In this document: in pieces, positions 2,312 to 60,086 of the stretch
How the letters are laid out: each line of letters opens with the position of its first letter
Position numbering within the stretch: the stretch's first letter is position 1
NCBI GenBank assembly: GCA_036338595.1
Contig: JAYZBV010000113.1
Location: 43,216-107,215 of the forward strand
Reading direction: 5' to 3'
Length of the DNA: 64,000 nt
DNA from: Planctomycetota bacterium
GTDB taxonomy: Bacteria > Planctomycetota > UBA8108 > UBA1146
Made by a program: the position numbers and the translations under genes
The notes under the pieces: model-generated
Told to the model about the DNA's origin: nothing
The model's input: the letters and a program-made list of their open reading frames with translations, nothing else
The model's database searches: none

Positions 2312-2387
2312 TGGTGGACCTGAGGGGGATCGAACCCCTGACCTCTGCATTGCGAACGCAGCGCTCTCCCATCTGAGCTACAGGCCC
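2312..2387 (-). tRNA. tRNA-Ala (anticodon CGC), CCA encoded
   Basis: Folded by hand. Acceptor GGGCCTG/CAGGTCC contains the G3:U70 alanine identity pair. Anticodon stem CTGCG/TGCAG with loop TTCGCAA. T-loop GGTTCGATCCC. 76 nt ending in ACCA. Confidence 0.93.
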
Positions 2388-3598: not shown

Positions 3599-4647
3599 CA
3601 GTTGCTCCGTATCCGAATCACGCCGAGTAGGTCGACCACAAGAGGCTCGCTCTCACCGGTATCGAGAGTCAGACTCAACTTACCATAGATACCACCAGCA
3701 GTTGTTGGGAATGGATCTGCGATGTAAGCGCGTATCTCGACACTTCCATCCTCCTGCGGTTTGGTCGAGAAGGAAATGTCCAGGCCAGCTGGATTTCGGG
3801 TCAGTTCGAGCTGGGACCCGAGAACCTTCAGCGGTTTCCCATCCGCTCTTCGCAACTTCAATGTGCTTTCGGCGAATCCACTCTGACTGACCTGATTCAG
3901 GTTCCATGACTGAGGTTGGTGAACAATCAGCCCGAAGGCACGTCCTCGAATGGGCATGACGAAGGGCAGACCATTGCAAAGGCCCTCGATCTGGCCCACG
4001 AAGCGCCCTCGTGCAATTCCCGCTGTGGCGGTCACTTCGATGCGCGCCCGACTTCCCTTCGGCTCGAGGAGCCTGACTTTGAAGTGCTGGGCGCTGCTCT
4101 TCAGATTCTCTATCGATGGGGGCTCGGTCGTGCCGCTCTGCGTCAGTTCAAGGATCCGAGAGGACTCTGCAATCGGGCCAGCGGTGGAGGTCGCCAGCAC
4201 GAGATCGCGACTCGAGGGCCTCACAGATGGGTGGAAGTTTGCCTGTACAGGTAGCCGTACCACCGGCAGGTTCCCTACCAGCACCTCGACCTTCTTGGAG
4301 AAGTCGCCCCAGCCCCGTCCAAGACTCAGGTCGAACTGGAAGTTGCGCTTTTCCCCGGGACCCAGCGGTGTACGGACATCGTGAGGGCGCATCTTGATAC
4401 AGCCACAACTGGGACGGATCGAAGAGATCTTGACGGGCTCCTTGGTCATGTTGACGATCTGGAACTCCAGCAATCGCTTGCCGCCATGTCCGACCCTGCC
4501 CAGGTCGATGCTGGTCGGTTGGAGTGCGAGACTACTACTGGACGATTGAGCCTCGAGGATCGAGCCCAGAGGTACCAGCAAGACGAGCATCGTGGCGAGG
4601 ATCCAGTTCCGTGCGGATCCGGGTTGACGGGTCGAGTTGCATCGCAT
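3598..4647 (-). CDS. secreted DUF1573-like (Ig-fold, CGC motif) protein
   Basis: Signal peptide after the ATG at 4647 (GGAG upstream). [18 protein letters not shown] resembles the DUF1573 signature. Its stop overlaps the lpxD start (TGATG). The ORF could extend to 4722. Confidence 0.6.
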
Positions 4648-4779
4648 CGCTGGGATCTCCTTGATCACATTGTAACCGCCACGAAGTTCCTGTGGTGGGG
4701 ATCTGGTGCTGGCTGCTGGCATGATCTATTTTCGGGGAAAATTGCAATGCACAGCGGTTGAGAGCGAGTAGGGGGAGAA

Positions 4780-5418
4780 ATGGCAGCCAGCACCATCGAG
4801 CAAGTCTGGGGGATTCCGCGCGAGGCGATGCTCCAGCAGGTCGGAGATTTCCAGGGATTCAGGGCGGATCCCGCGGATTTGCTGGCGCGTTGTCGTGATC
4901 TGGAGCCGCACGGGTCGTTTCGTCCACGCGATCAGGTCGAAGATGATCCGCACTGGAAACAGGTGATTCCGTACCTCGTGCTACGCCATCGAGACCGGGT
5001 GCTTCGTCTGCGTCGCCTTTCGACCCAGGGAGAGTCTCGGCTGCATCACCGGATTTCCATCGGTGTGGGAGGTCATGTCAATCCCGAGCCGGCGGGTCCA
5101 GAACCGCTCCTGATGCGCGGCATGAGGAGAGAACTGGCAGAGGAGGTTCGGCTGCTTCGCGCTCCCGGCCAGTTTCGATTGCTCGGCTGGATCAATGACG
5201 ATGCGACAGATGTAGGACAGGTTCACCTGGGCCTGGCGATCGAGGCGACACTGGACCACCCGGCGCAGATCAGAGAGACGGACCGGATGGAGGGCCTGTG
5301 GCTGCCTCTGACGCAACTCTGTGCCACGGATCCTGCCTGGGAATCCTGGTCAGCACTGCTGATCCCCGTACTGGAACCCCATGAGCATGATCCGGCGGGT
5401 TCCAAAGCTTTGTCCTGA
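4780..5418 (+). CDS. NUDIX-family hydrolase-like protein
   Basis: 212 aa. Nudix-box-like segment GGHVNPE...RGMRRELAEEVRL. GGGGGAG RBS before the ATG at 4780. Confidence 0.5.
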   Translation: MAASTIEQVWGIPREAMLQQVGDFQGFRADPADLLARCRDLEPHGSFRPRDQVEDDPHWKQVIPYLVLRHRDRVLRLRRLSTQGESRLHHRISIGVGGHVNPEPAGPEPLLMRGMRRELAEEVRLLRAPGQFRLLGWINDDATDVGQVHLGLAIEATLDHPAQIRETDRMEGLWLPLTQLCATDPAWESWSALLIPVLEPHEHDPAGSKALS

Positions 5419-9324: not shown

Positions 9325-10089
9325 TTGACCGAACGACTTTACGAGGGACTCTTCCTCGTCGATGCAGCAGTTGCTGCGACAGATTGGGCCGACATCGAAA
9401 AGCAGATTTCTGGCTTGATTGAACAGCAGGGCGCAACCATCGAATATTCAGAAAGGTGGCCGGAGCAACGGCTTGCCTATCCGGTAAAGGGTATCAAGCG
9501 AGGTGTTTACTTCCTCGCCTACTTTACCTCCAACACCGACGCTATCGCTGCGATTCGCAGTGATGGCCAGCTCAACGAGAATGTCCTGAGGATGTTGATC
9601 GTCCAGGAGGAATTTCTCGGTGTGGAGATGGCCAAGCGCAAGGAAGCCGCTGCACGCGCAGCCGCCGTGCCAGTTGCTGAGCCGGAAACGCAACCTGAAT
9701 CGAAACCTGAATCGAAATCTGAATCGGACTCTGAATCGAAATCTGAATCCGATTCTGAATCGGATTCTGGTTCCGAAGGAGAGGGTGTTGTCGAGGATGC
9801 GATGGCTGCCAGTGAAGGTGACTCGCTCGATGCATCCCCCCCGGAAGCAGATGCGGACAGCGACGGCGAGGTCGCAGTCGAAACAGAGGCAGTCGAAACA
9901 GAGGCAGTCGAAACCGAGGCAGTCGAAACCGAGGCCGTTGACGCTGCGGCAGTTGACGCTGCGGAGTCCGAGCCCGAGGTTTCCGAATCAGAGGTTCCGG
10001 AGGAGGTCGCGACAGCAGAAGGCGACGAGGAGACACCGGTTGGTGATTCCGTTGAAGAAGTCGCCAACACCGAGGAAGAAATCAACTGA
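9325..10089 (+). CDS. rpsF: 30S ribosomal protein S6 with a long acidic repeat-containing C-terminal extension
   Basis: S6 core (LYEGLFLVD...RLAYPVKGIKRGVYFLAYF...VLRMLIV). The likely TTG start at 9325 follows AAGGAG (9313-9318); the ORF track starts at 9250. After about 110 aa the protein continues as a roughly 145-aa Glu/Asp/Ser/Ala-rich tail. Confidence 0.88.
   Translation: MTERLYEGLFLVDAAVAATDWADIEKQISGLIEQQGATIEYSERWPEQRLAYPVKGIKRGVYFLAYFTSNTDAIAAIRSDGQLNENVLRMLIVQEEFLGVEMAKRKEAAARAAAVPVAEPETQPESKPESKSESDSESKSESDSESDSGSEGEGVVEDAMAASEGDSLDASPPEADADSDGEVAVETEAVETEAVETEAVETEAVDAAAVDAAESEPEVSESEVPEEVATAEGDEETPVGDSVEEVANTEEEIN
9694..9777 (+). repeat. imperfect 12-bp coding tandem repeat (7 units, CCTGAATCGAAA-like) inside the rpsF tail
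   Basis: Encodes PESKPESKSESDSESKSESDSESDSGSE; the units differ only at a few positions. Confidence 0.85.
9874..9963 (+). repeat. 15-bp coding tandem repeat (4 units GCAGTCGAAAC[A/C]GAG + 2 diverged units) inside the rpsF tail
   Basis: Encodes AVETE x4 followed by AVDAA x2. Confidence 0.9.
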
Positions 10090-10105
10090 ACGAGAAGAGG
10101 TCGTC

Positions 10106-10567
10106 ATGGAGATCAACAGGGTATTTATCGCTGGCAATCTGACCCGGGATCCAGAGTTGAGAATGACTCCGGGTGGCACGGCGGTCTGTGACCTCGGACT
10201 CGCATCCAATCGACGGTACCGCAAACAAGGCGATGAACAGCTTCAGGAAGAGACCTGCTTCGTGACCGTCACCGTATGGGGTCGGCAGGCAGAAAATTGC
10301 AATCAATATCTATCCAAGGGGAAGCAGGTCGTGGTCGAAGGGCGACTCAAGTACGACCAGTGGACCGACAAGGATAGTGGCAAGAATCGAAACAAGCTGA
10401 CAGTGGTCGCGGATCGTGTCCACTTCATGCCACGCTCCAGCGAGGGTGGATCGCCACAGGGTGGATCCACGCAGGGCGGCTACTCCGCAACGGGCGAGCA
10501 AAGTTCTGGAGGACAAACCGAAGGTTTTCCACAGGGCCAACCTTTCAATGATGAGGTGCCCTTCTAG
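10106..10567 (+). CDS. ssb: single-stranded DNA-binding protein
   Basis: MEINRVFIAGNLTRDPELRMTPGG OB-fold, a Gly/Gln-rich linker and an acidic tip ending NDEVPF. ATG at 10106, inside the longer shadow ORF 9620-10567. Confidence 0.93.
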   Translation: MEINRVFIAGNLTRDPELRMTPGGTAVCDLGLASNRRYRKQGDEQLQEETCFVTVTVWGRQAENCNQYLSKGKQVVVEGRLKYDQWTDKDSGKNRNKLTVVADRVHFMPRSSEGGSPQGGSTQGGYSATGEQSSGGQTEGFPQGQPFNDEVPF

Positions 10568-25565: not shown

Positions 25566-25995
25566 GAGAAGACGCCTTTCCATTGCTGACCAGACCCGGA
25601 CCCCGGACGACCAGTGTCCGGATGACTTTCCAGGATCGTACAGCAGCAGCACAGCATCAAGTCAACACGGGCACTGTATCGCGAGGTGCTGGACACGAAG
25701 GTAGCGGCATGGCGCTTGCAATCATTTCGTTGATCTCCGGGTGCACCGGGCACCGGAGGCGGTAACGGTTCCAGTCCTCACGGGGTGAAGGAAGAGGCGG
25801 GGAGGCGTCTCACGGTGTCATCTGGCACCACAGATCAGCTGTCCGGGGAGACGGGGAAGGAAGTGGTCCAACCCCGATGTCAGTAGAAGAGGGGATCGTC
25901 TCGCCAGTGGATCCACTCTCCCCGGTCACAGCTGCCCTGGATCTGGAGAGCCGAGAATCGCGTAGGAAGGGGCCCGCCGCTGATGCTAGTGCAGT

Positions 25996-26322: not shown

Positions 26323-26460
26323 CTCGTATCCTTTCCTGCAGAAATCGCTCAATTCAGCAACGAGAGGGACTCCTCCGTCGGGAGCGTTTGATCCGCGTCC
26401 TATCTCCACTATAAAATGTGTCGGAGAGCAGACGTACAAATTTCTCGGTGGGAGGGTAGA

Positions 26461-47343: not shown

Positions 47344-48482
47344 TGGACTCGGTCTATCTCGATTTCAATGCAACGACACCCATCCATGCTGAGATTGCTC
47401 ACCAGATGTCCGGTTGGCTCCTTGCCGGGGAACCATCCAACCCATCCAGTTTGCACAGTCACGGCAGGGAAGCGCGTCGGTTTCTCGAGGAAGCGCGCCA
47501 GCGACTTGCTACCTATCTGCGTGTGGATCCTGCAGAACTACACTTCACCAGTGGTGGCACCGAATCCAACAACCTGGCGATGTTCGGGCTGGCACCTACC
47601 GATGCTCCGCTTCATGTCGGCGCCACCGAACACCCTTCGATTCTCGAACCTGCGAAACAGCAGTGGCAGAAGGGCCGCCCCGGAGGCTTGCTCGAGGTGG
47701 ATCGCTTCGGGCGCATCCAGGAATTCGAGGTGGTGGAGGGCGCCCTCTACTCGATTCAATGGGTCAATAACGAGACCGGGATCACTCAGGACATTTCAGC
47801 CCTGGCGACACGTATTCATGATGGTGGGGGCCGGTTACACATCGACGGGGCTCAGGGATTTTTCCGCCTCGACCCGACGCTGGCTGAACTCGGCGTCGAC
47901 TCCGCATCGATCACAGCGCACAAATCCTTTGGTCCGATCGGTGTCGGCGCACTCTGGGTCAGAAGCGGAATGCTCATCGAACCGGTGATCCGAGGGGGAC
48001 CCCAAGAGAAGAAGATCAGACCCGGTACCGAGAACCTTCCAGCCATTCGAGGACTTGGACTGCTCGCAGAAATCGCCGGGCGAACTCCCCTCTGGAGTCT
48101 TGACCAGCTGAGGGATTCCAGAGCCGCTCTGGTCGCCAACCTGGAGTCGGTTCCCGACACACGCATCGTCGAGCACCAACCACAGGACTGGCCCGGCTGT
48201 CTGCACATCGGATTTCTTGGCATCCATGCCGAAACACTACTGGTCAGGCTCGATATGGCAGGGATATCCGCTTCCAGCGGTTCTGCATGCTCATCCGGAG
48301 CAAGGGAGCCGAGCCATGTACTGGCGGCGATGGGTGTCGAGCACGAATGGATCCGTGGCTCCATTCGCCTGTCGCTGGGGCCGACCTGCAGTGTTGACCG
48401 GATGGCCAGTGTGGGATCCCAGCTGGCACGAATTGTTTCAGAGCTGCGTCAAAGAGATCTCCAGTCTCCTCCCATCGCATAA
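47340..48482 (+). CDS. cysteine desulfurase (NifS/IscS-like class V aminotransferase)
   Basis: VYLDFNATTP, PLP-lysine region SITAHKSFGPIGVGAL, and catalytic loop SSGSACSSG. Confidence 0.88.
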   Translation: MMDSVYLDFNATTPIHAEIAHQMSGWLLAGEPSNPSSLHSHGREARRFLEEARQRLATYLRVDPAELHFTSGGTESNNLAMFGLAPTDAPLHVGATEHPSILEPAKQQWQKGRPGGLLEVDRFGRIQEFEVVEGALYSIQWVNNETGITQDISALATRIHDGGGRLHIDGAQGFFRLDPTLAELGVDSASITAHKSFGPIGVGALWVRSGMLIEPVIRGGPQEKKIRPGTENLPAIRGLGLLAEIAGRTPLWSLDQLRDSRAALVANLESVPDTRIVEHQPQDWPGCLHIGFLGIHAETLLVRLDMAGISASSGSACSSGAREPSHVLAAMGVEHEWIRGSIRLSLGPTCSVDRMASVGSQLARIVSELRQRDLQSPPIA

Positions 48483-48518
48483 AAAATACACCGGGGTCTC
48501 GACGTATCGAGACCCCGG
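48481..48518 (-). terminator. intrinsic terminator of the MamK-like operon (possibly bidirectional)
   Basis: Perfect 12-bp stem CCGGGGTCTCGA/TCGAGACCCCGG (48491-48518) with a 4-nt loop. On the minus strand it is followed by TGTATTTTTT (48481-48490). Confidence 0.8.
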
Positions 48519-48552
48519 CAGAGAAGGGGGGGAGTGCATTGGAATCTTCGGA

Positions 48553-49650
48553 TCACTTTCTCATCTGGCTCCAGTACTCTTCTGGCATCTCCTGGGCCAG
48601 TTTCAGTGCACCTTGCGCACCTGCGTAAACCGGATCGTCGACAATCATGACTCGGCCTCCGCCGAGTGCTTCCAGTCCCTGTTCGAGGGCTTCCTGGAGG
48701 CCAAAGACTTGCGATCCTCCGCCGCTGACGATGATCCTGTTGCGGATACGATGCTGGAATTCTGGATCGAAGGAGGCTACCAGGGATTGAATCCCTTGTG
48801 TAATCCACGGGACCAGTTCCTCGACGGCACTTCGTAGTTGCGGAGTGATGTCGATCTTGGTTGGGCAACCGGCCACGGGAAAGGTCACCAGAGCGCGATT
48901 TTCGGTATCGACCACGCTGCTGAAACGCTCCTTGGCGGTCTTGATCATGTTCGTTGTGAATTGAACCTGGGGGTGGGCCTCACGTATCAATTCTGCGAGC
49001 CGTTGATCGACATAATTTCCGGCCCGAAATACGGTGACCTGGTCTTCTACTCCGGGCAGGCTGCCTGCCATCCGGCACAGGTCGATGGTGCCAGCACCGA
49101 TGTCGATGACGATGGCATTCTCCAGAGCACCGACGGCGTATGCGACGGAAAAGGGTTCTGATACCACCATCACACCATCGATGCCTGCGTCCCTGGCCAG
49201 ATCCACGATCGCCTGCTTGTTCGCGCGTGTGGCTTCGGCTGGCGCACCGATCACGGCACAAACCGCCTGATCGGGCCTCGGATTACTGGCCTTTCGCAAC
49301 TGGGCCAGAAGCGTGACACCCGCCTTTCGCGACGCTTCCCTTTCGTTACCGCTCAACTCGGTGAACGCAAGATTTCCTGCGCTCAATGGGTAACAGGTAT
49401 TGAGTGCCAGCCGATTTTCCAGCACAGCGTCGCCCACAACGATGCTGGCGCCCAGTACCCTGGCAGATACCGAGTCCTTGGGCCAACCGACCAGGCTCGC
49501 CATCACTTCACGGGCACCATTGGAACTGGCGATGGCGCTTCGGCTCGTCCCCAGATCGATTCCAACATGCAAGATACTCGTCTTGCTGCTGACCCATGGG
49601 GCGGCCACATCTTTGTCACTGTCTTGTTGCATCTTGTTTTCCGGGGTCAT
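48553..49650 (-). CDS. actin-like ATPase, MamK-like (second actin homolog besides MreB)
   Basis: 365 aa. Phosphate-1 GIDLGTS, phosphate-2 DIGAGTIDL, adenosine motif VSGGGSQ. The blocks VGWPKD, VCAVIGAPAEATRANKQA, VVSEPFSVAYA, FRAGNYVDQRL and the C-terminal GALKLAQEMPEEYW resemble MamK as I recall it. GAAGGAAGG RBS. Confidence 0.75.
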   Translation of the reverse strand: MTPENKMQQDSDKDVAAPWVSSKTSILHVGIDLGTSRSAIASSNGAREVMASLVGWPKDSVSARVLGASIVVGDAVLENRLALNTCYPLSAGNLAFTELSGNEREASRKAGVTLLAQLRKASNPRPDQAVCAVIGAPAEATRANKQAIVDLARDAGIDGVMVVSEPFSVAYAVGALENAIVIDIGAGTIDLCRMAGSLPGVEDQVTVFRAGNYVDQRLAELIREAHPQVQFTTNMIKTAKERFSSVVDTENRALVTFPVAGCPTKIDITPQLRSAVEELVPWITQGIQSLVASFDPEFQHRIRNRIIVSGGGSQVFGLQEALEQGLEALGGGRVMIVDDPVYAGAQGALKLAQEMPEEYWSQMRK

Positions 49651-49652
49651 GA

Positions 49653-50354
49653 CTACCTTCCTTCTCGGTCCTGTGATCGTGTTTCTCCGGTTGCTGAGTC
49701 TTCTGCAAGGGATCGAAGAGCCACATTTGCCTGAAACAGTTGATCCAGGAGTTCTGATTTCTTGTTGTCAAAGGGGGACTTCACTTCTAACTCGTCGATC
49801 GCTGGATCGCCCTCGCTGGCGAGAGCGTGATCGGTCGCCTGAAGTGCAAGCGTCAATTCTTCGATCCTCATTTCGAGCCTTTCGACCTGAGTGCGTTGGG
49901 AATCTCTTACCGTGGCCAGCTCGGATCTCCAGTCGCGCGCAATCAGCCGCGACAGTTGCACGAGCAGCGCCTTCTCTCTCTGTCCAAGCGCTCCAGTGGA
50001 GGCACCTGTCGAGGGCCGTGGTTGCTGTGCTTGCGGCGCCTCGGTGGGCGCAGCAATTTCTCTCGATGGGACGGCCACTTCCGGCAGATCCGCAGGAGGC
50101 GGCGGGGGGCTGGTGGGGGGAGCCATCAGATAGCTCTGGGCTCGATCCAGCAACAGTTCCCGTTCCTCGACACTGATCTGGATCTCTTCTAGCAACTCGG
50201 TCAGCGCTCTCGCGAGTGCTTTCCTGGCCGTGTCTCGCAACTGGCTCGCAGAGACGACTCGCAACTTGTGGATGCCCTTCTTCTGAAGGTCTTGCAGTTC
50301 GTGCATGGAACTGGCTCGAAGCGACCAGGGGCTATCACTGGCTTCAGGAGTCAT
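49653..50354 (-). CDS. proline-rich coiled-coil protein, partner of the MamK-like actin (unknown family)
   Basis: 233 aa from the ATG at 50354. Helical/heptad-like segments flank a PPTSPPPPPADLP...APTEAPQAQQPRP linker. Its TAG stop lies 2 nt before the actin ATG. Confidence 0.6.
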   Translation of the reverse strand: MTPEASDSPWSLRASSMHELQDLQKKGIHKLRVVSASQLRDTARKALARALTELLEEIQISVEERELLLDRAQSYLMAPPTSPPPPPADLPEVAVPSREIAAPTEAPQAQQPRPSTGASTGALGQREKALLVQLSRLIARDWRSELATVRDSQRTQVERLEMRIEELTLALQATDHALASEGDPAIDELEVKSPFDNKKSELLDQLFQANVALRSLAEDSATGETRSQDREGR

Positions 50355-50753
50355 CTCGGTCCTTTCTGCTGCAGCCGCGGGAGTACCGCAGTGCTGGTGG
50401 AGGGGAGGCAAACGGCGTGCCCGCAACCGATCGAGGTTCCCGGCAGGATCGCCGCACCTCCCGACCCCAACTCCGTACCGATGGCGACCCGTGTGTCCCG
50501 GTTGTTGACAATCGGCAGCCTGTGTCCTATCCGAGGTGAGGGGGGGGGTGCCGAAAAGAGGGATCGGGTGCTACAATAGGACCATCTGACACGGATTCCG
50601 CGCTGGAACGGTCGTCAGTGCGAGGATGCGGTGAGTCCCGATTCGGGTCCCTCGCCACCAAACGGGCCTATAATCAGTCCCGGTGCCATCCTCTGGATCG
50701 AGTTACCAGTCGATCCTCGCCCAGGATGTGCGCGCCCGAACAGGAGTCTACTC

Positions 50754-52073
50754 ATGGTTCACCTTCGTACCCCGGTGCTTTTCATCGGCCTGCTCTTGCT
50801 GATGGTCATCTCGACACCACTCGCAGCACAGAATCCTGATTACATCTTTCATTTTGATACCAGTAGTTCAGGTCCTTCCGGTGCTGTCGTCACCACCCGA
50901 GCGTTGATCGATAACAACGGTGGAAATCTTGCAGGCTGGTCGATCGCCATCTGTCACGATTCCGCAATGGAGGTGATCGAGGCGGTCAGTGGATCCGCAC
51001 CCAATACAGCCAACGCCGGCAGCCCAGCAGATTTCGATGAGCTGAGCCTGTTTCCCGGTTTTGGAGTGCGGCAGGGTGTTGTGATCAATTTTGTCGGACA
51101 AAATGATCTTCCCATCAACACGGACCATGAGGCGATCGTGATGCAGGCACAGTTGCTGGGACCGGACGACACCTTTGCAGCCATCGATTACTGCACTGCG
51201 ATTTTTCCAGGTGACTCTTCAGAATCGGAAAATCTGGCAGTGGCTCCCGGTGGAGTGGCCATCGAACCGACGACCATCGATGGACTCATCGAGATCGGAG
51301 GATTGCTTCCTTTCGAACTGAGCGCCTCGCCCTCAGCGAGTAGCGTCGAGCAGGGACTCGATGTGGATGTCCAGATGCTGCTGGATGCTCCCGTTGAGAA
51401 TTACGGATTTTCCTTTGGCTTCGCCCACTCTGGCGAGGCGTTGATCCTACTGTCTGCCGAGGCTGGTGCCGCCCTCACAGCTCTCAATGGTGGCGACGGA
51501 CCGGAATTCCTGGCCCTGGATATCGATCCGGTGGGAGCAGACGGCCTGATCGCCGCTTGTCTCTACTCGGTCTCCGATCTGACGACGCTCCCTGCGGGCA
51601 ATGGCCAGGAGTTGATCATCGGCCACTATCAGGTTGCCGACACGGCACCGATCGGCAGCACCGCTCTTGATTTCACCGATACCCTGGTGCCGCAGGTTTC
51701 TTCACCTCCGACAGCCATCGTGGTTTCGCTCGGCCTGTCCGGATCCGTTGTCCAGACATCGGGCACCAGTATCGAGATCCTCGAGGGGGTCGTCGGTGTC
51801 CAGTTCATGCGCGGCGATTTTGATGGAAACGGCGCTCTCAACCTGGGCGATCCGGTGAATCTGCTCGATTACATGTTCAGCGGCGGAGCCGCCTCCGCTT
51901 GCGAGAAGAATGGCGATATCGATGACAGTGGCAGCATCGTGCTGGGAGATCCGGTCCTGCTGCTGACCTACATGTTCTCGGGAGGAGAGCCTCCTGCTGC
52001 GCCATTTGACGAATGTGGAATCGATCCCACCGAGGATGATCTCACCTGCGAGCAGTTTGACGCCTGTCCCTGA
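50754..52073 (+). CDS. secreted protein with two cohesin-like modules (tentative) and a C-terminal dockerin-like module
   Basis: 439 aa from the ATG at 50754 (CAGGAG upstream), with a signal peptide. The C-terminus GDFDGNGALNLGDPVNLLDYMF...GDIDDSGSIVLGDPVLLLTYMF is a duplicated dockerin Ca-loop/helix. Confidence 0.7.
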   Translation: MVHLRTPVLFIGLLLLMVISTPLAAQNPDYIFHFDTSSSGPSGAVVTTRALIDNNGGNLAGWSIAICHDSAMEVIEAVSGSAPNTANAGSPADFDELSLFPGFGVRQGVVINFVGQNDLPINTDHEAIVMQAQLLGPDDTFAAIDYCTAIFPGDSSESENLAVAPGGVAIEPTTIDGLIEIGGLLPFELSASPSASSVEQGLDVDVQMLLDAPVENYGFSFGFAHSGEALILLSAEAGAALTALNGGDGPEFLALDIDPVGADGLIAACLYSVSDLTTLPAGNGQELIIGHYQVADTAPIGSTALDFTDTLVPQVSSPPTAIVVSLGLSGSVVQTSGTSIEILEGVVGVQFMRGDFDGNGALNLGDPVNLLDYMFSGGAASACEKNGDIDDSGSIVLGDPVLLLTYMFSGGEPPAAPFDECGIDPTEDDLTCEQFDACP

Positions 52074-57573: not shown

Positions 57574-58647
57574 CTAGAAATCATCCTCGATGGAGTCGAG
57601 GACCGAAGAATATTGATCCAGTTTTTCAAGAAAAATGGCCGTTCCACGAGCCACGCAGGTGAGAGGGTCATCGGCGACGCGGACTGGCAATCCCGTGACC
57701 TTGCGGATCATCTCATCGAGTCCCCTCAGCAATACTCCTCCGCCACAGAGGACGATGCCTCGCTCGACCAGATCTGCGCACAGTTCCGGATCGGTCTGCT
57801 CCAGCGTGGCCTTGATTCCCTCGATAATCTTCTCGACGGGAGGCTGAAGTGCATCACGAATCTCATCACTCGTGATCATGACACTTCGCGGCAAGTTGCC
57901 GATCAGATCGCGCCCCTTGACCTCCATCTCGAGTTCATCTTCGAGCGGAAATGCGGACCCGATTTTGATCTTGATCTGTTCTGCGGTAAGAGGACCGACC
58001 AGGATGTTATAGGTGTCCTTCATGTACTTGATGATCGCTTCATCCATGTCGTCTCCGGCGATACGCAACGAGACACTGGTCACAACATCTGCCAGCGAGA
58101 GAACCGCTATCTCTGTAGTACCACCGCCGACATCGACCACCATACTCGCGATGGGCTCCTCGATCGGGAGTCCTGCACCGAGTCCTGCAGCACGAGGTTC
58201 TTCAACCAGGTATACCTTCCTGGCTCCAGCTCTCTCGGCAGAGTTGTAGACCGCTCGTTTCTCGACTGCAGTGATGCCGCTGGGTACAGCGATGACCACA
58301 CGTGGGCTGAAGAAGCGAGATCGCTTCTGAACCTTGGTGATGAAGTACTTCAACATCGCTTCCGTGATCTCGAAATCGGCGATCACCCCGTCTCTGAGAG
58401 GACGTACTGCCTCGATGGAAGTGGGGGTTCGGCCCATCATTTCCTTTGCGACACTACCGACAGCTCGACCATCGAGGAGAACCTGGTTGGTACCAGCTTT
58501 CACTGCGACTACGGACGGCTCACTGATCACGATGCCTCGACCCCTGACACAGACGAGAGTATTCGCCGTGCCCAGATCGATTCCAAGGTCGGTGGAGAAC
58601 CTCCCGACCACGGAGTTGATCCAGTTGTGTGCTATTCGGAAAAGCAA
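57574..58647 (-). CDS. mreB: rod shape-determining actin homolog MreB
   Basis: FSTDLGIDLGTANTLV, VVDVGGGTTEIAVLS and LCGGGVLLRGLDEMI. The likely TTG start at 58647 lies 8 nt after GGGGAG. The ORF-track ATG at 58809 would add a non-homologous 54-aa extension. Confidence 0.93.
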   Translation of the reverse strand: MLFRIAHNWINSVVGRFSTDLGIDLGTANTLVCVRGRGIVISEPSVVAVKAGTNQVLLDGRAVGSVAKEMMGRTPTSIEAVRPLRDGVIADFEITEAMLKYFITKVQKRSRFFSPRVVIAVPSGITAVEKRAVYNSAERAGARKVYLVEEPRAAGLGAGLPIEEPIASMVVDVGGGTTEIAVLSLADVVTSVSLRIAGDDMDEAIIKYMKDTYNILVGPLTAEQIKIKIGSAFPLEDELEMEVKGRDLIGNLPRSVMITSDEIRDALQPPVEKIIEGIKATLEQTDPELCADLVERGIVLCGGGVLLRGLDEMIRKVTGLPVRVADDPLTCVARGTAIFLEKLDQYSSVLDSIEDDF

Positions 58648-58896
58648 GATAGATACTCCCCGCCCGATCAGGGGGCAGTGGTGTAACACTACCCTTCGAT
58701 CGGATCCCCGAGGGCCGTTGGCCCTCATTCCCACTTCGGGCTTTCGCAACCTACTGGCCCCATCATCTCTGACAGGTCTCCCGCGGTATTGCACCGCGGA
58801 CGAAAGCACCCCATCGCCGCGCCCTGGATTCTAGGTGAGGAATCATGCAGAGGCGAGGGGGAGCAAGAAAAGATCCATGCCCTGGGCTTTGTTCGG

Positions 58897-59234: not shown

Positions 59235-60086
59235 CTAGCTGGACAGCCGTGTCGAGGCTTTGTGCCCCTCACGAATACCGGAATCCTCCTGGAACAGGAT
59301 GGTGCAGCCGGACATATCGTCGAGGACCTTGGTCACCTGGACTTTGCCGATGAATCGGTTGCCGTCGTAGATGGTGAACTCGTAGCCGATCTCAACATTG
59401 TCATCCTTGCCGACAGAAAGCACCACGACACCTTCCTGGACACCGACGACCATGCCGTCGATGGGTGGGGCGGTGGTCACACCGATATCGGGAAGTCGGA
59501 CGCCAGAGTCCACGATCCTGGAGATCAGCAACTGCTGGTCATCGTAGTCTTCCCTGAGTGCGGTCAATTCCTTGTTGAGGGCTTCCGTCTGTTGAGCCAG
59601 CTGCTCCTTGTCGAGCAATGCTCGGTTGCGCAGCCGTTCCGCCAGTTTCTTGGCGTCTCCCGCCTCGTCAATCTCCGAACTCAGTCGTGTGATTTCTTCC
59701 TCGAGGCGGGCGATGTTGGAATCCTTGTCCTGGATATGCTCGTCCTTCTGGGCAATCCGGGAATCAAGATCATCGATCTTGGTGCCCAGCTGGGCGACGC
59801 TCTTTCTCAGATCTCCGTTGGAGTTCTGGAGGACCAAGATCGAGGAACCCAGTTGTTCCTTTTCTCTCGTCAGGGATTCGTTATTTCTGGTCTTCTCATC
59901 GACGACGCCTTGCAGCGTTTCCTTCATCTTCTCCGCCATGGCGACCGTCTCTTCTGCATTCTCCACGGCTGATTCGGCAGCGCCTTTCCAGTCCTTCTGG
60001 GACTGGAACAACGTTGCACTAACACCGAGGAAGAAGAGTGCCAGGACGAGATTGATCACCACGAAAAACTTGGCGAGCCCACTCAT
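59235..60086 (-). CDS. membrane-anchored coiled-coil protein with C-terminal beta-rich domain
   Basis: 283 aa. N-terminal TM helix (FFVVINLVLALFFLGVSATLF), about 170 aa of heptad-rich coiled coil, then GMVVGVQEGVVVLSVGKDDNVEIGYEFTIYDGNRFIGKVQV. GGAAGGA/GGAG RBS. Confidence 0.65.
   Translation of the reverse strand: MSGLAKFFVVINLVLALFFLGVSATLFQSQKDWKGAAESAVENAEETVAMAEKMKETLQGVVDEKTRNNESLTREKEQLGSSILVLQNSNGDLRKSVAQLGTKIDDLDSRIAQKDEHIQDKDSNIARLEEEITRLSSEIDEAGDAKKLAERLRNRALLDKEQLAQQTEALNKELTALREDYDDQQLLISRIVDSGVRLPDIGVTTAPPIDGMVVGVQEGVVVLSVGKDDNVEIGYEFTIYDGNRFIGKVQVTKVLDDMSGCTILFQEDSGIREGHKASTRLSS

Follow-up and report, generated by a model that had tools for sequence, protein, structure and literature searches.

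What a planctomycete does with a second bacterial actin, encoded apart from MreB and beside a protein of no catalogued family, is the question raised by a 64-kb stretch of DNA (contig JAYZBV010000113.1, hereafter the window) from a marine Planctomycetota lineage of metagenome-assembled genomes (MAGs). On its minus strand the window carries a gene for a MamK-family actin-like ATPase of 365 amino acids (aa; 48553-49650), preceded directly by a gene for a protein of 233 aa counted from its ATG (49653-50354, minus strand), which is referred to here as the partner. With what we judge to be slightly better than even chances, the locus is a self-contained two-gene cytoskeletal module composed of a polymerising MamK-type actin and a dedicated adaptor or regulator; judged from the pairing of the genes, it would be a variant of the actin-plus-adaptor theme.

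The actin is a member of the MamK family, and is not MreB, ParM, FtsA or Hsp70. On the NCBIfam MamK model (NF040964) it scored 392.7 bits, just under the curated cut-off of 400, and the other models gave 165.2 bits against a cut-off of 530 for BeeR (NF053558), 70.8 against 293 (NF010539) and 58.9 against 365.75 (TIGR00904) for MreB, and 23.6 against 417 for ParM; in Pfam only a weak match to MreB_Mbl was returned (79.7 bits). When PDB sequences were searched with phmmer, three MamK entries were the best matches (E-value about 3e-82, residues 26-363), followed by BeeR (5e-27) and MreB (1.5e-11), and the protein is 42% identical over its full length to MamK of Magnetospirillum magneticum AMB-1. 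An AlphaFold (AF2) model was built from 16 homologues (predicted local distance difference test score, pLDDT, 88.6; predicted template modelling score, pTM, 0.84), and its top Foldseek match was the MamK filament 5ljv_A (E-value 8.9e-38, template modelling score 0.97, root-mean-square deviation 1.2 Å over 330 columns), ahead of BeeR (5e-28) and MreB (about 1e-21); in the actin itself, the N-terminal ~21 residues are disordered. The phosphate 1 (DLGTS), SEPF glutamate, phosphate 2 (DIGAGT) and adenosine (GGGS) motifs are present and aligned with those of MamK, and none of them varies among 16 homologues. The initial annotation of this DNA had placed the protein in the MamK branch, rather than with MreB, ParM or FtsA, from several sequence blocks; those blocks do align with solved MamK, and the profile, PDB and Foldseek tests agree on the placement, with the nuance that the score lies below the curated MamK cut-off. 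Many close relatives have already been named 'MamK family actin-like protein' by NCBI, and cluster look-ups for ten related actins gave MAGs only and no cultured organism. It had also been held that this is not the housekeeping MreB, and that is so: MreB is encoded at 57574-58809, 8 kb from the actin and within a mreBCD-mrdA-rodA arrangement that also occurs in the relative L001 (related loci are given as L numbers), and it scored 466 bits on Pfam MreB_Mbl, compared with 79.7 for the actin. The window actin is therefore a second actin, separate from MreB.

The two open reading frames (ORFs), re-read from the sequence, are exactly as first described, with a gap of 2 nucleotides (nt) between them. 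On the minus strand the partner stop codon TAG (49655-49653) is followed by TC and then by the actin ATG (49650-49648), and a Shine-Dalgarno-like GAAGGAAGG (GAGAAGGAAGG) lies at 49656-49666 (minus strand), within the 3' end of the partner ORF and 5-13 nt ahead of the actin ATG. This spacing, together with the Shine-Dalgarno-like site, is typical of translational coupling, and the partner and the actin are probably co-translated. Homologues of the partner begin at the same position as the ATG at 50354, and this ATG is further supported as the true start by a promoter element, described below, that falls inside the longer, TTG-extended ORF. Downstream of the actin, an intrinsic terminator on the minus strand (TGCCGGGGTCTCGA-TACG-TCGAGACCCCGGTG followed by TATTTTTTAT; 48520-48479) separates the operon from a convergent class-V aminotransferase gene (Pfam Aminotran_5, 152.6 bits). 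The presence of this terminator had been predicted correctly, but its stem, given as 12 bp at 48481-48518, comprises 14 pairs at 48479-48520, of which 9 are G-C, closed by a 4-nt loop and followed by a T-run. Upstream of the partner lie 399 nt of intergenic DNA (50355-50753), in line with the ~400 nt reported before. The GC content across the locus is unremarkable, with no anomaly that would suggest recent transfer, and an Rfam scan of the window returned four tRNAs only, none of them within the locus.

Adjacency of the two genes in relatives, which the initial annotation had set as a check, was found in 23 of 23 species genomes and in 38 of 64 independently fetched loci. The species genomes came from a scan that used one genome per species, reaches only close relatives and relies on exact peptide patterns; the partner was present in 23 of them with the actin directly downstream in each, one copy being cut by a contig end. 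These are marine Planctomycetota MAGs (e.g., UBA1146 and TMED53) and one genome labelled Bacillota, and among them the actins are 58-93% identical and the partners 32-71%, so that the partner evolves faster. The closest relative (L008, QNYK01000062.1; actin 93% and partner 71% identical) was deposited as 'Bacillota bacterium' and is probably a mislabelled bin, because all other relatives are Planctomycetota. Next to more distant actins (45-50% identity) in five unrelated neighbourhoods (L006 and L031-L034), a gene on the same strand ends 39-72 nt upstream, and the proteins it encodes share just their C-terminal ~95 residues, hereafter the module, with the window partner. A hidden Markov model (HMM) of the module matched exactly one ORF in 35 of 36 sources, always beside the actin, and no other among 5575 ORFs. 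For the independent test, 80 metagenome loci were fetched by actin alone, and 64 had enough flanking DNA to be assessed: the module was encoded upstream on the same strand in 38 and downstream in 3, another gene stood upstream in 17, and 6 had neither. Among loci whose actin scored at least 300 bits against the window actin, the module was upstream in 38 of the 40 that could be assessed, and actins of the module-linked clade abound in metagenomes from soil, fresh water and the sea. The earlier view of the locus as a chromosomal second actin with a partner gene is supported, MreB being separate and the pairing being conserved across unrelated neighbourhoods. Six module-linked loci (L033:6375-7157, and also L057, L058, L059, L063 and L078) have a P-loop ATPase gene directly upstream of the partner on the same strand, which matches Pfam AAA_31, ParA and CbiA and makes a three-gene arrangement; the ParA-like gene of L033 was considered as a mark of a partition system and rejected, being by eye more of the BY-kinase/AAA_31 type and confined to these six loci.

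The partner is laid out as a small helical N-terminal domain (residues 1-76), a Pro/Ala-rich linker (77-124; 27% Pro) and the C-terminal module (125-219; 49698-49982 on the minus strand), in which a long helix with a short heptad stretch, QVERLEMRIEELTLAL, is followed by an amphipathic helix, KKSELLDQLFQANVALR. Its AF2 model is wholly helical or disordered, with helices at residues 17-25, 36-57, 62-76, 125-180 (pLDDT near 90) and 197-219 and disorder at 77-124; the N-terminus can also be described as a strand-like segment followed by two helices. The partner had been called a coiled-coil protein, and heptads are indeed present, but they are short (V157-L178) and the term applies only modestly. 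That it contains no recognised domain was borne out by library searches: no meaningful family match was obtained in Pfam, NCBIfam, PADLOC, PHROGs or a PDB profile search (best TraP, E-value 0.017, and TrmH, 0.74), and Foldseek gave a best E-value of 0.68 and mostly ribosomal helices, which is meaningless for a helical model of low pTM. Homologues are few, with 31 clusters in a set of 5.8 billion proteins and 39 representatives, almost all of about 70-290 aa, in an exhaustive profile search of 1.84 billion proteins, and those that are named all come from Planctomycetota MAGs; a homology search from the module alignment returned mainly short fragments and no named proteins. Distant partners share only the module, in which one helix has the pattern R-R-I-x-K-L-x-x-x-L-x-x-[ST]-E and the last helix the pattern K-x-E-[LM]-[LM]-x-x-[IL]-F-x-A-N-[LVI]-x-L. 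Ahead of it, a small helical domain with a G-I-x-K-x-R-V-V segment is found in the window, L006, L031 and L033, a degenerate GGDEF domain in L032 (42.5 bits) and, marginally, in L034, and a PAS domain in some fragments. In L096:3914-5302 and in L101 and L102:5110-6516 the module stands at the C-terminus of an Arg/Pro-rich protein of 462-468 aa that is encoded downstream of the actin.

The phylogeny of the actins separates the module-linked members from those with another neighbour. In a neighbour-joining tree of 104 actins, to which AMB-1 contributed the only MamK of a cultured organism, nearly all module-linked actins fell into a clade of 88 (bootstrap 66) and the amidase-linked actins formed a sister clade of 16 (bootstrap 87), with AMB-1 MamK and BeeR outside both; in a smaller tree, the environmental and Planctomycetota actins excluded AMB-1 MamK (bootstrap 82). 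The 17 amidase-linked loci (L087, L090, L091, L094, L095, L097, L099, L100, L104-L110, L112 and L115) encode actins 40-46% identical to that of the window. In every one of them the gene upstream of the actin overlaps its start (e.g., L095:2842-3996, with the actin at 3980-5008) and encodes a protein of 355-405 aa that matches Pfam Amidase_3 with 150-160 bits and has an N-terminal hydrophobic segment resembling a membrane anchor, an arrangement which suggests that the actin-amidase pair acts in wall remodelling or cell separation. The actin of L095 scored 423.5 bits on the NCBIfam MamK model, above the cut-off, so that a high score on this model does not single out actins of magnetosomes.

The sample does include genuine magnetosome MamKs, a small minority recognisable by context, and the window is unlike them. 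L073, L092 and L093, which are loci with neither partner, form a tight sub-clade with L076, L080 and L103 (bootstrap 100), and the MamKs of magnetosome loci scored 461-469 bits on the NCBIfam model. In L073 (3467-8056), a MamK of 460.7 bits is followed ~1-2 kb downstream by a MamP-like magnetochrome-plus-PDZ protein (218 bits, Pfam PF18509) and MamM (413 bits, cut-off 350), and in L092 (734-5059), a MamK of 469 bits is preceded by FeoB and by a protein with iron-dependent repressor and FeoA domains. As the initial annotation had stated for the genes nearby, no magnetosome genes were found in the window, to which these negatives apply (ten neighbours against Pfam, ten ORFs against NCBIfam, and the rest read by eye). 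The neighbours there are a class-V aminotransferase, a BFN-domain protein, PGK, mreBCD-mrdA-rodA, and TPR and FG-GAP proteins, and the window also holds lpxD, glmU, prs, dnaB, rpsB-tsf-pyrH-frr, pgk, and genes for aminoacyl-tRNA synthetases and fatty-acid oxidation.

The magnetosome-type loci may nevertheless bear a relative of the module. Directly upstream of mamK and on the same strand, L073, L076, L092 and L093 encode mutually homologous proteins of ~145-157 aa whose N-terminus carries an EYSGLVxYSxxKR motif, unlike the window partner, and whose C-terminus resembles the module (ERLxxIEE followed by K-x-x-LL-x-x-I-x-x-[DE]-N-h-x-L). The module HMM gave per-sequence E-values of 1.7e-7 for L076, 3e-5 for L093 and 0.025 for L073, and hhalign aligned the two families over 59 columns in the same C-terminal register with a probability of 48% and an E-value of 1.9e-4, values that coiled-coil composition can inflate. 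The likeness is suggestive of homology between the module and the C-terminus of the protein upstream of magnetosome mamK.

The upstream region of the operon was found to contain a sigma-54-type -24/-12 element, GGCACGCCGTTTGC, at 50408-50421 on the minus strand, 54 nt upstream of the partner ATG and with a predicted transcription start near 50396; the initial annotation had missed it. The sigma-54 consensus is TGGCACG-N4-TTGCW, and the element aligned in relatives, GGGCACGCC[AG]TTTGCCT, fits it. The upstream regions of nine relatives were aligned, with a mean column identity of 62% and several invariant blocks. The pattern GG[CT]A[CT][GA]-N4-TTGC stands at the same position and on the operon strand in 23 of 24 loci whose actin is at least 69% identical and which have enough upstream DNA, and it is the sole match on either strand of those 7-21-kb loci, save for L011, which has a second; the bases of the N4 spacer vary and the GG and TTGC of the -24 and -12 elements are fixed. 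In more distant members the element reads GGCCCG or GGTCCG-N4-TTGC, with variants seen in L003, L018, L007 and L005, and the element was not found in the distant module-linked loci L006 and L031-L034. No sigma-70 consensus promoter was found in the upstream region. A further non-coding block, GTCAGATGGTCCTATTGTAGCAC (50568-50590, minus strand), which lies ~170 nt upstream of the -24 element, is near-invariant in the nine relatives and also present in L018, is a candidate enhancer, that is, an activator-binding site.

Across the 64-kb window the sigma-54 pattern has 2 matches against 0.30 expected, the second being GGCATGGCGCTTGC at 25706-25719 on the plus strand, in the gap before an arginyl-tRNA synthetase-like gene at 26416. 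Some relatives (L004:1-2345, L005:1-1647 and L007:1-4367) encode, within ~3-5 kb upstream of the partner-actin pair, a giant protein of 1597-1683 aa with a Ser/Thr kinase, a sigma-54 activator AAA+ domain and HTH_8, which is absent from the window; the lineage therefore uses sigma-54, and the giant protein is a candidate activator of the promoter. On the plus strand, a conserved TATAAT at 50669-50674 probably serves as the -10 box for the gene 50754-52073, which runs divergently from the operon and begins 80 nt further on. This gene encodes a secreted-looking protein of 439 aa with two C-terminal EF-hand/dockerin-like repeats, and its divergent position is kept in L001, L003, L005 and L007; the earlier naming of it as a dockerin protein was not sustained, as no Pfam or NCBIfam match was obtained and the name depends on the two EF-hand-like repeats seen by eye.

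Several known systems invite comparison with the pair. The nearest for the actin is MamK of M. magneticum AMB-1 (PDB 5jyg, 5ljv and 5ljw), which has the same nucleotide-binding motifs and the same C-terminal P-x-x-YW tail as the window actin; however, the window has no magnetosome cluster nearby and its partner is not MamJ. BeeR, the tubular actin of Verrucomicrobiota (PDB 8r2n), and MreB share the actin fold as the second and third best structural matches, and BeeR is 28% identical to MamK-family members. Saltatorellin, a MamK-like actin of the non-magnetotactic Saltatorellota, assembles into filaments when produced in E. coli or M. gryphiswaldense, and the Saltatorellota change shape and lack FtsZ (10.1101/817700). 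Like the window actin, saltatorellin accompanies MreB as a second actin; it comes from a non-magnetotactic organism related to the Planctomycetes and branches near MamK, and the window offers the same kind of setting, with a MamK-like actin and MreB within one 64-kb stretch and Planctomycetota MAGs as relatives. Its C-terminal peptide YWEQLK, known from a published primer, is also the C-terminus of several module-linked actins, and the window actin has YWSQMRK; saltatorellin is likened here by its primer-encoded termini only, and the window comes from a different, marine MAG lineage. No adjacent partner gene is mentioned in the saltatorellin preprint (10.1101/817700). Saltatorellin is nonetheless a functional precedent outside magnetotactic bacteria for an actin of this family.

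With regard to the partner, MamK of Desulfovibrio magneticus RS-1 has coiled-coil proteins among its interaction partners (PMC12748827). Mad20/23/25/26 with MamK and Mad28 in that strain, and MamJ with MamK in Magnetospirillum, are likewise cases of MamK-family filaments with non-enzymatic helical or acidic partners encoded nearby; those partners differ in that they lie in magnetosome clusters and organise magnetosomes, whereas the window partner matches no catalogued family. The parallel to mamJ-mamK that had been drawn for this locus holds as a functional analogy only; family scans with Pfam and NCBIfam detected no homology to MamJ. ParM/ParR, AlfA/AlfB and Alp7A/Alp7R have the same two-gene cassette of actin and adaptor, and differ from the window in that its partner is acidic and has no detected DNA-binding domain, centromere repeats are absent, the gene order is reversed, the setting is one of chromosomal housekeeping genes and the actin is far from ParM.

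If the locus is such a cytoskeletal module, the actin would form MamK-like double-stranded filaments, a capacity for polymerisation that may be expected because saltatorellin forms filaments heterologously. The partner would dimerise through its short heptad stretch, and the module would contact the actin, with the terminal amphipathic helix (K-x-E-L-L-x-x-L-F-x-A-N-x-x-L) binding filament or monomer. The variable N-terminal domain would then couple the filament to a lineage-specific target or signal, and expression would be conditional, through an enhancer-binding activator. The cargo of the pair is very unlikely to be a magnetosome. The best guess, though a speculative one, is that the pair serves cell shape, division or positioning, and such an envelope, shape or division role is made plausible by the amidase-linked sister clade, the shape-changing Saltatorellota and the reported lack of FtsZ in Planctomycetes.

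Two readings would give the pair the task of a better-known actin, and neither fits well. The actin could be an ordinary mamK paralogue of a magnetotactic bacterium, helping to align magnetosomes whose gene cluster lies elsewhere in the genome. Magnetotactic Planctomycetota do exist (PMC7602337; PMC10653835), a further MamK-like gene is found in M. magneticum outside the main island (cited in PMC12748827), and by sequence and fold alike the window actin is closest to solved MamK, with 392.7 bits on the MamK model. That score is, however, below the cut-off of a model that gives 423.5 bits to a non-magnetosome, amidase-linked actin, and the genuine loci L073, L092 and L093 sit in their own clade (bootstrap 100) with 461-469 bits and with MamP and MamM beside them, nothing like which occurs in the window. 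The pair stands instead amid housekeeping genes in a synteny kept in many marine MAGs, and the clade to which its actin belongs is, as noted, very common in environmental metagenomes; we regard the paralogue as highly improbable. Somewhat less remote, but still improbable, is a chromosomal type II segregation system (ParMRC-, AlfAB- or Alp7AR-like), in which the partner, as an adaptor, would bind a centromere with a ribbon-helix-helix-like N-terminal domain and the actin with a C-terminal tail, and the actin would drive DNA apart. The architecture of an actin with a small adaptor would suit it, as would the strand-like segment and two helices at the partner N-terminus in the monomer model, a weak PHROGs 'partition protein' match for the actin, and the ParA/AAA_31-type ATPase gene that precedes the partner in six related loci; the extreme C-terminal helix also recalls the ParR tail that binds ParM. 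Yet the partner carries a net negative charge (-9 for the whole protein, -1 within the N-terminal domain), and no DNA-binding family or fold was found for it in Pfam, NCBIfam, a PDB profile search or Foldseek. A repeat search of 50300-50800 showed no iterons or repeats above chance in the 399-nt upstream region (chance-level two-copy matches of 12-13 nt only), agreeing with the earlier statement that centromere-like iterons are absent. Furthermore, the adaptor gene comes before the actin, the context is chromosomal and housekeeping rather than plasmid or phage, and on the NCBIfam ParM model the actin reaches 23.6 bits where 417 is the cut-off. Since the partner is acidic and lacks such repeats, and since relatives carry GGDEF or PAS in place of its N-terminal domain, a ParR-like DNA-binding role is unlikely.

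Closer to the cytoskeletal module that we favour is the reading in which the partner is a regulator (a polymerisation inhibitor, a nucleator or a signal-responsive switch) whose sensor-type N-terminal domains would adjust the assembly of filaments, and the filament scaffolds envelope or peptidoglycan remodelling; it is a possibility of some substance, although on the unlikely side. Signal input is suggested by the GGDEF-like and PAS domains at the N-terminus of homologues, a sigma-54 promoter would mean that expression is conditional, the Amidase_3 gene overlapping the actin start in 17 sister-clade loci ties the wider family to wall remodelling, and the Saltatorellota, with a similar actin, change shape and lack FtsZ. 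On the other hand, the window partner has no recognisable sensor domain and the amidase link belongs to a different clade, and this reading overlaps with the favoured one. A wider proposal, which we put forward tentatively and hold to be rather doubtful, is that the entire MamK family inherited the module as its ancestral means of binding filaments, the pair being a widespread, general-purpose cytomotive system of Planctomycetota and related uncultured bacteria that magnetotactic lineages recruited as a pair for magnetosomes, and that in FtsZ-less planctomycetes it would take part in division, segregation or a change of shape, the target being set by the exchangeable N-terminal domain. Recruitment as a pair would account for the module-like protein upstream of mamK in deep-branching clusters.

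Several points weigh against the favoured reading of a two-gene cytoskeletal module. The case for an interaction between partner and actin rests on gene adjacency and domain modularity, and nothing was found that names a cargo or cellular process. The partner model is only moderately confident (pLDDT 67.8, pTM 0.22), and its clean heptad stretch, V157-L178, is short, at about four heptads. Among the 38 upstream module matches 10 are weak (E-values of 1e-2 to 1e-5), and node support in the neighbour-joining tree is modest. The sigma-54 assignment was made by consensus and conservation only, with neither rpoN nor an activator in the window.

Elsewhere in the window, a gene just upstream of the mreB operon (59235-60086, minus strand) encodes a protein of 283 aa with an N-terminal hydrophobic segment and a long coiled coil; it has weak SMC/Rad50-type matches only, and the same gene precedes mreB in L001. 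A perfect tandem repeat of 4 x 21 nt (TGCCGATAGGCTAGGACTCCC) at 2423-2506 adjoins a tRNA gene (2315-2387, minus strand), and short tandem arrays with periods of 12, 15, 24 and 36 lie at 9695-9964, upstream of an ssb-like gene. These arrays yield NLNRNLNR and QSKQRQSK repeats in the ORF 9620-10567, the 5' part of which is probably non-coding.

In the open-access literature and bioRxiv, no description was found of the partner family, its C-terminal module, the near-universal pairing, the exchangeable N-terminal domains or the sigma-54 control. Planctomycetes have been reported to lack FtsZ, and how they and their relatives divide and organise the cell without it is an open question, for which the sole clue so far from a MamK-like actin of a planctomycete relative has been that saltatorellin forms filaments. 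The conserved partner module predicts a binding interface, the N-terminal domain would name the target or signal, and the partner and promoter data point to conditional, sigma-54-dependent expression. Moreover, among the 64 assessable loci the magnetosome-linked MamKs are a small minority, the others being paired with the module or with a peptidoglycan amidase, and an annotation as 'MamK family' does not imply magnetotaxis. If the homology of the module to the protein upstream of magnetosome mamK is real, the pairing of actin and adaptor would extend to magnetosome MamK itself. These observations matter wherever mamK serves as a marker gene of magnetotaxis, and for the question of how the magnetoskeleton arose in evolution.

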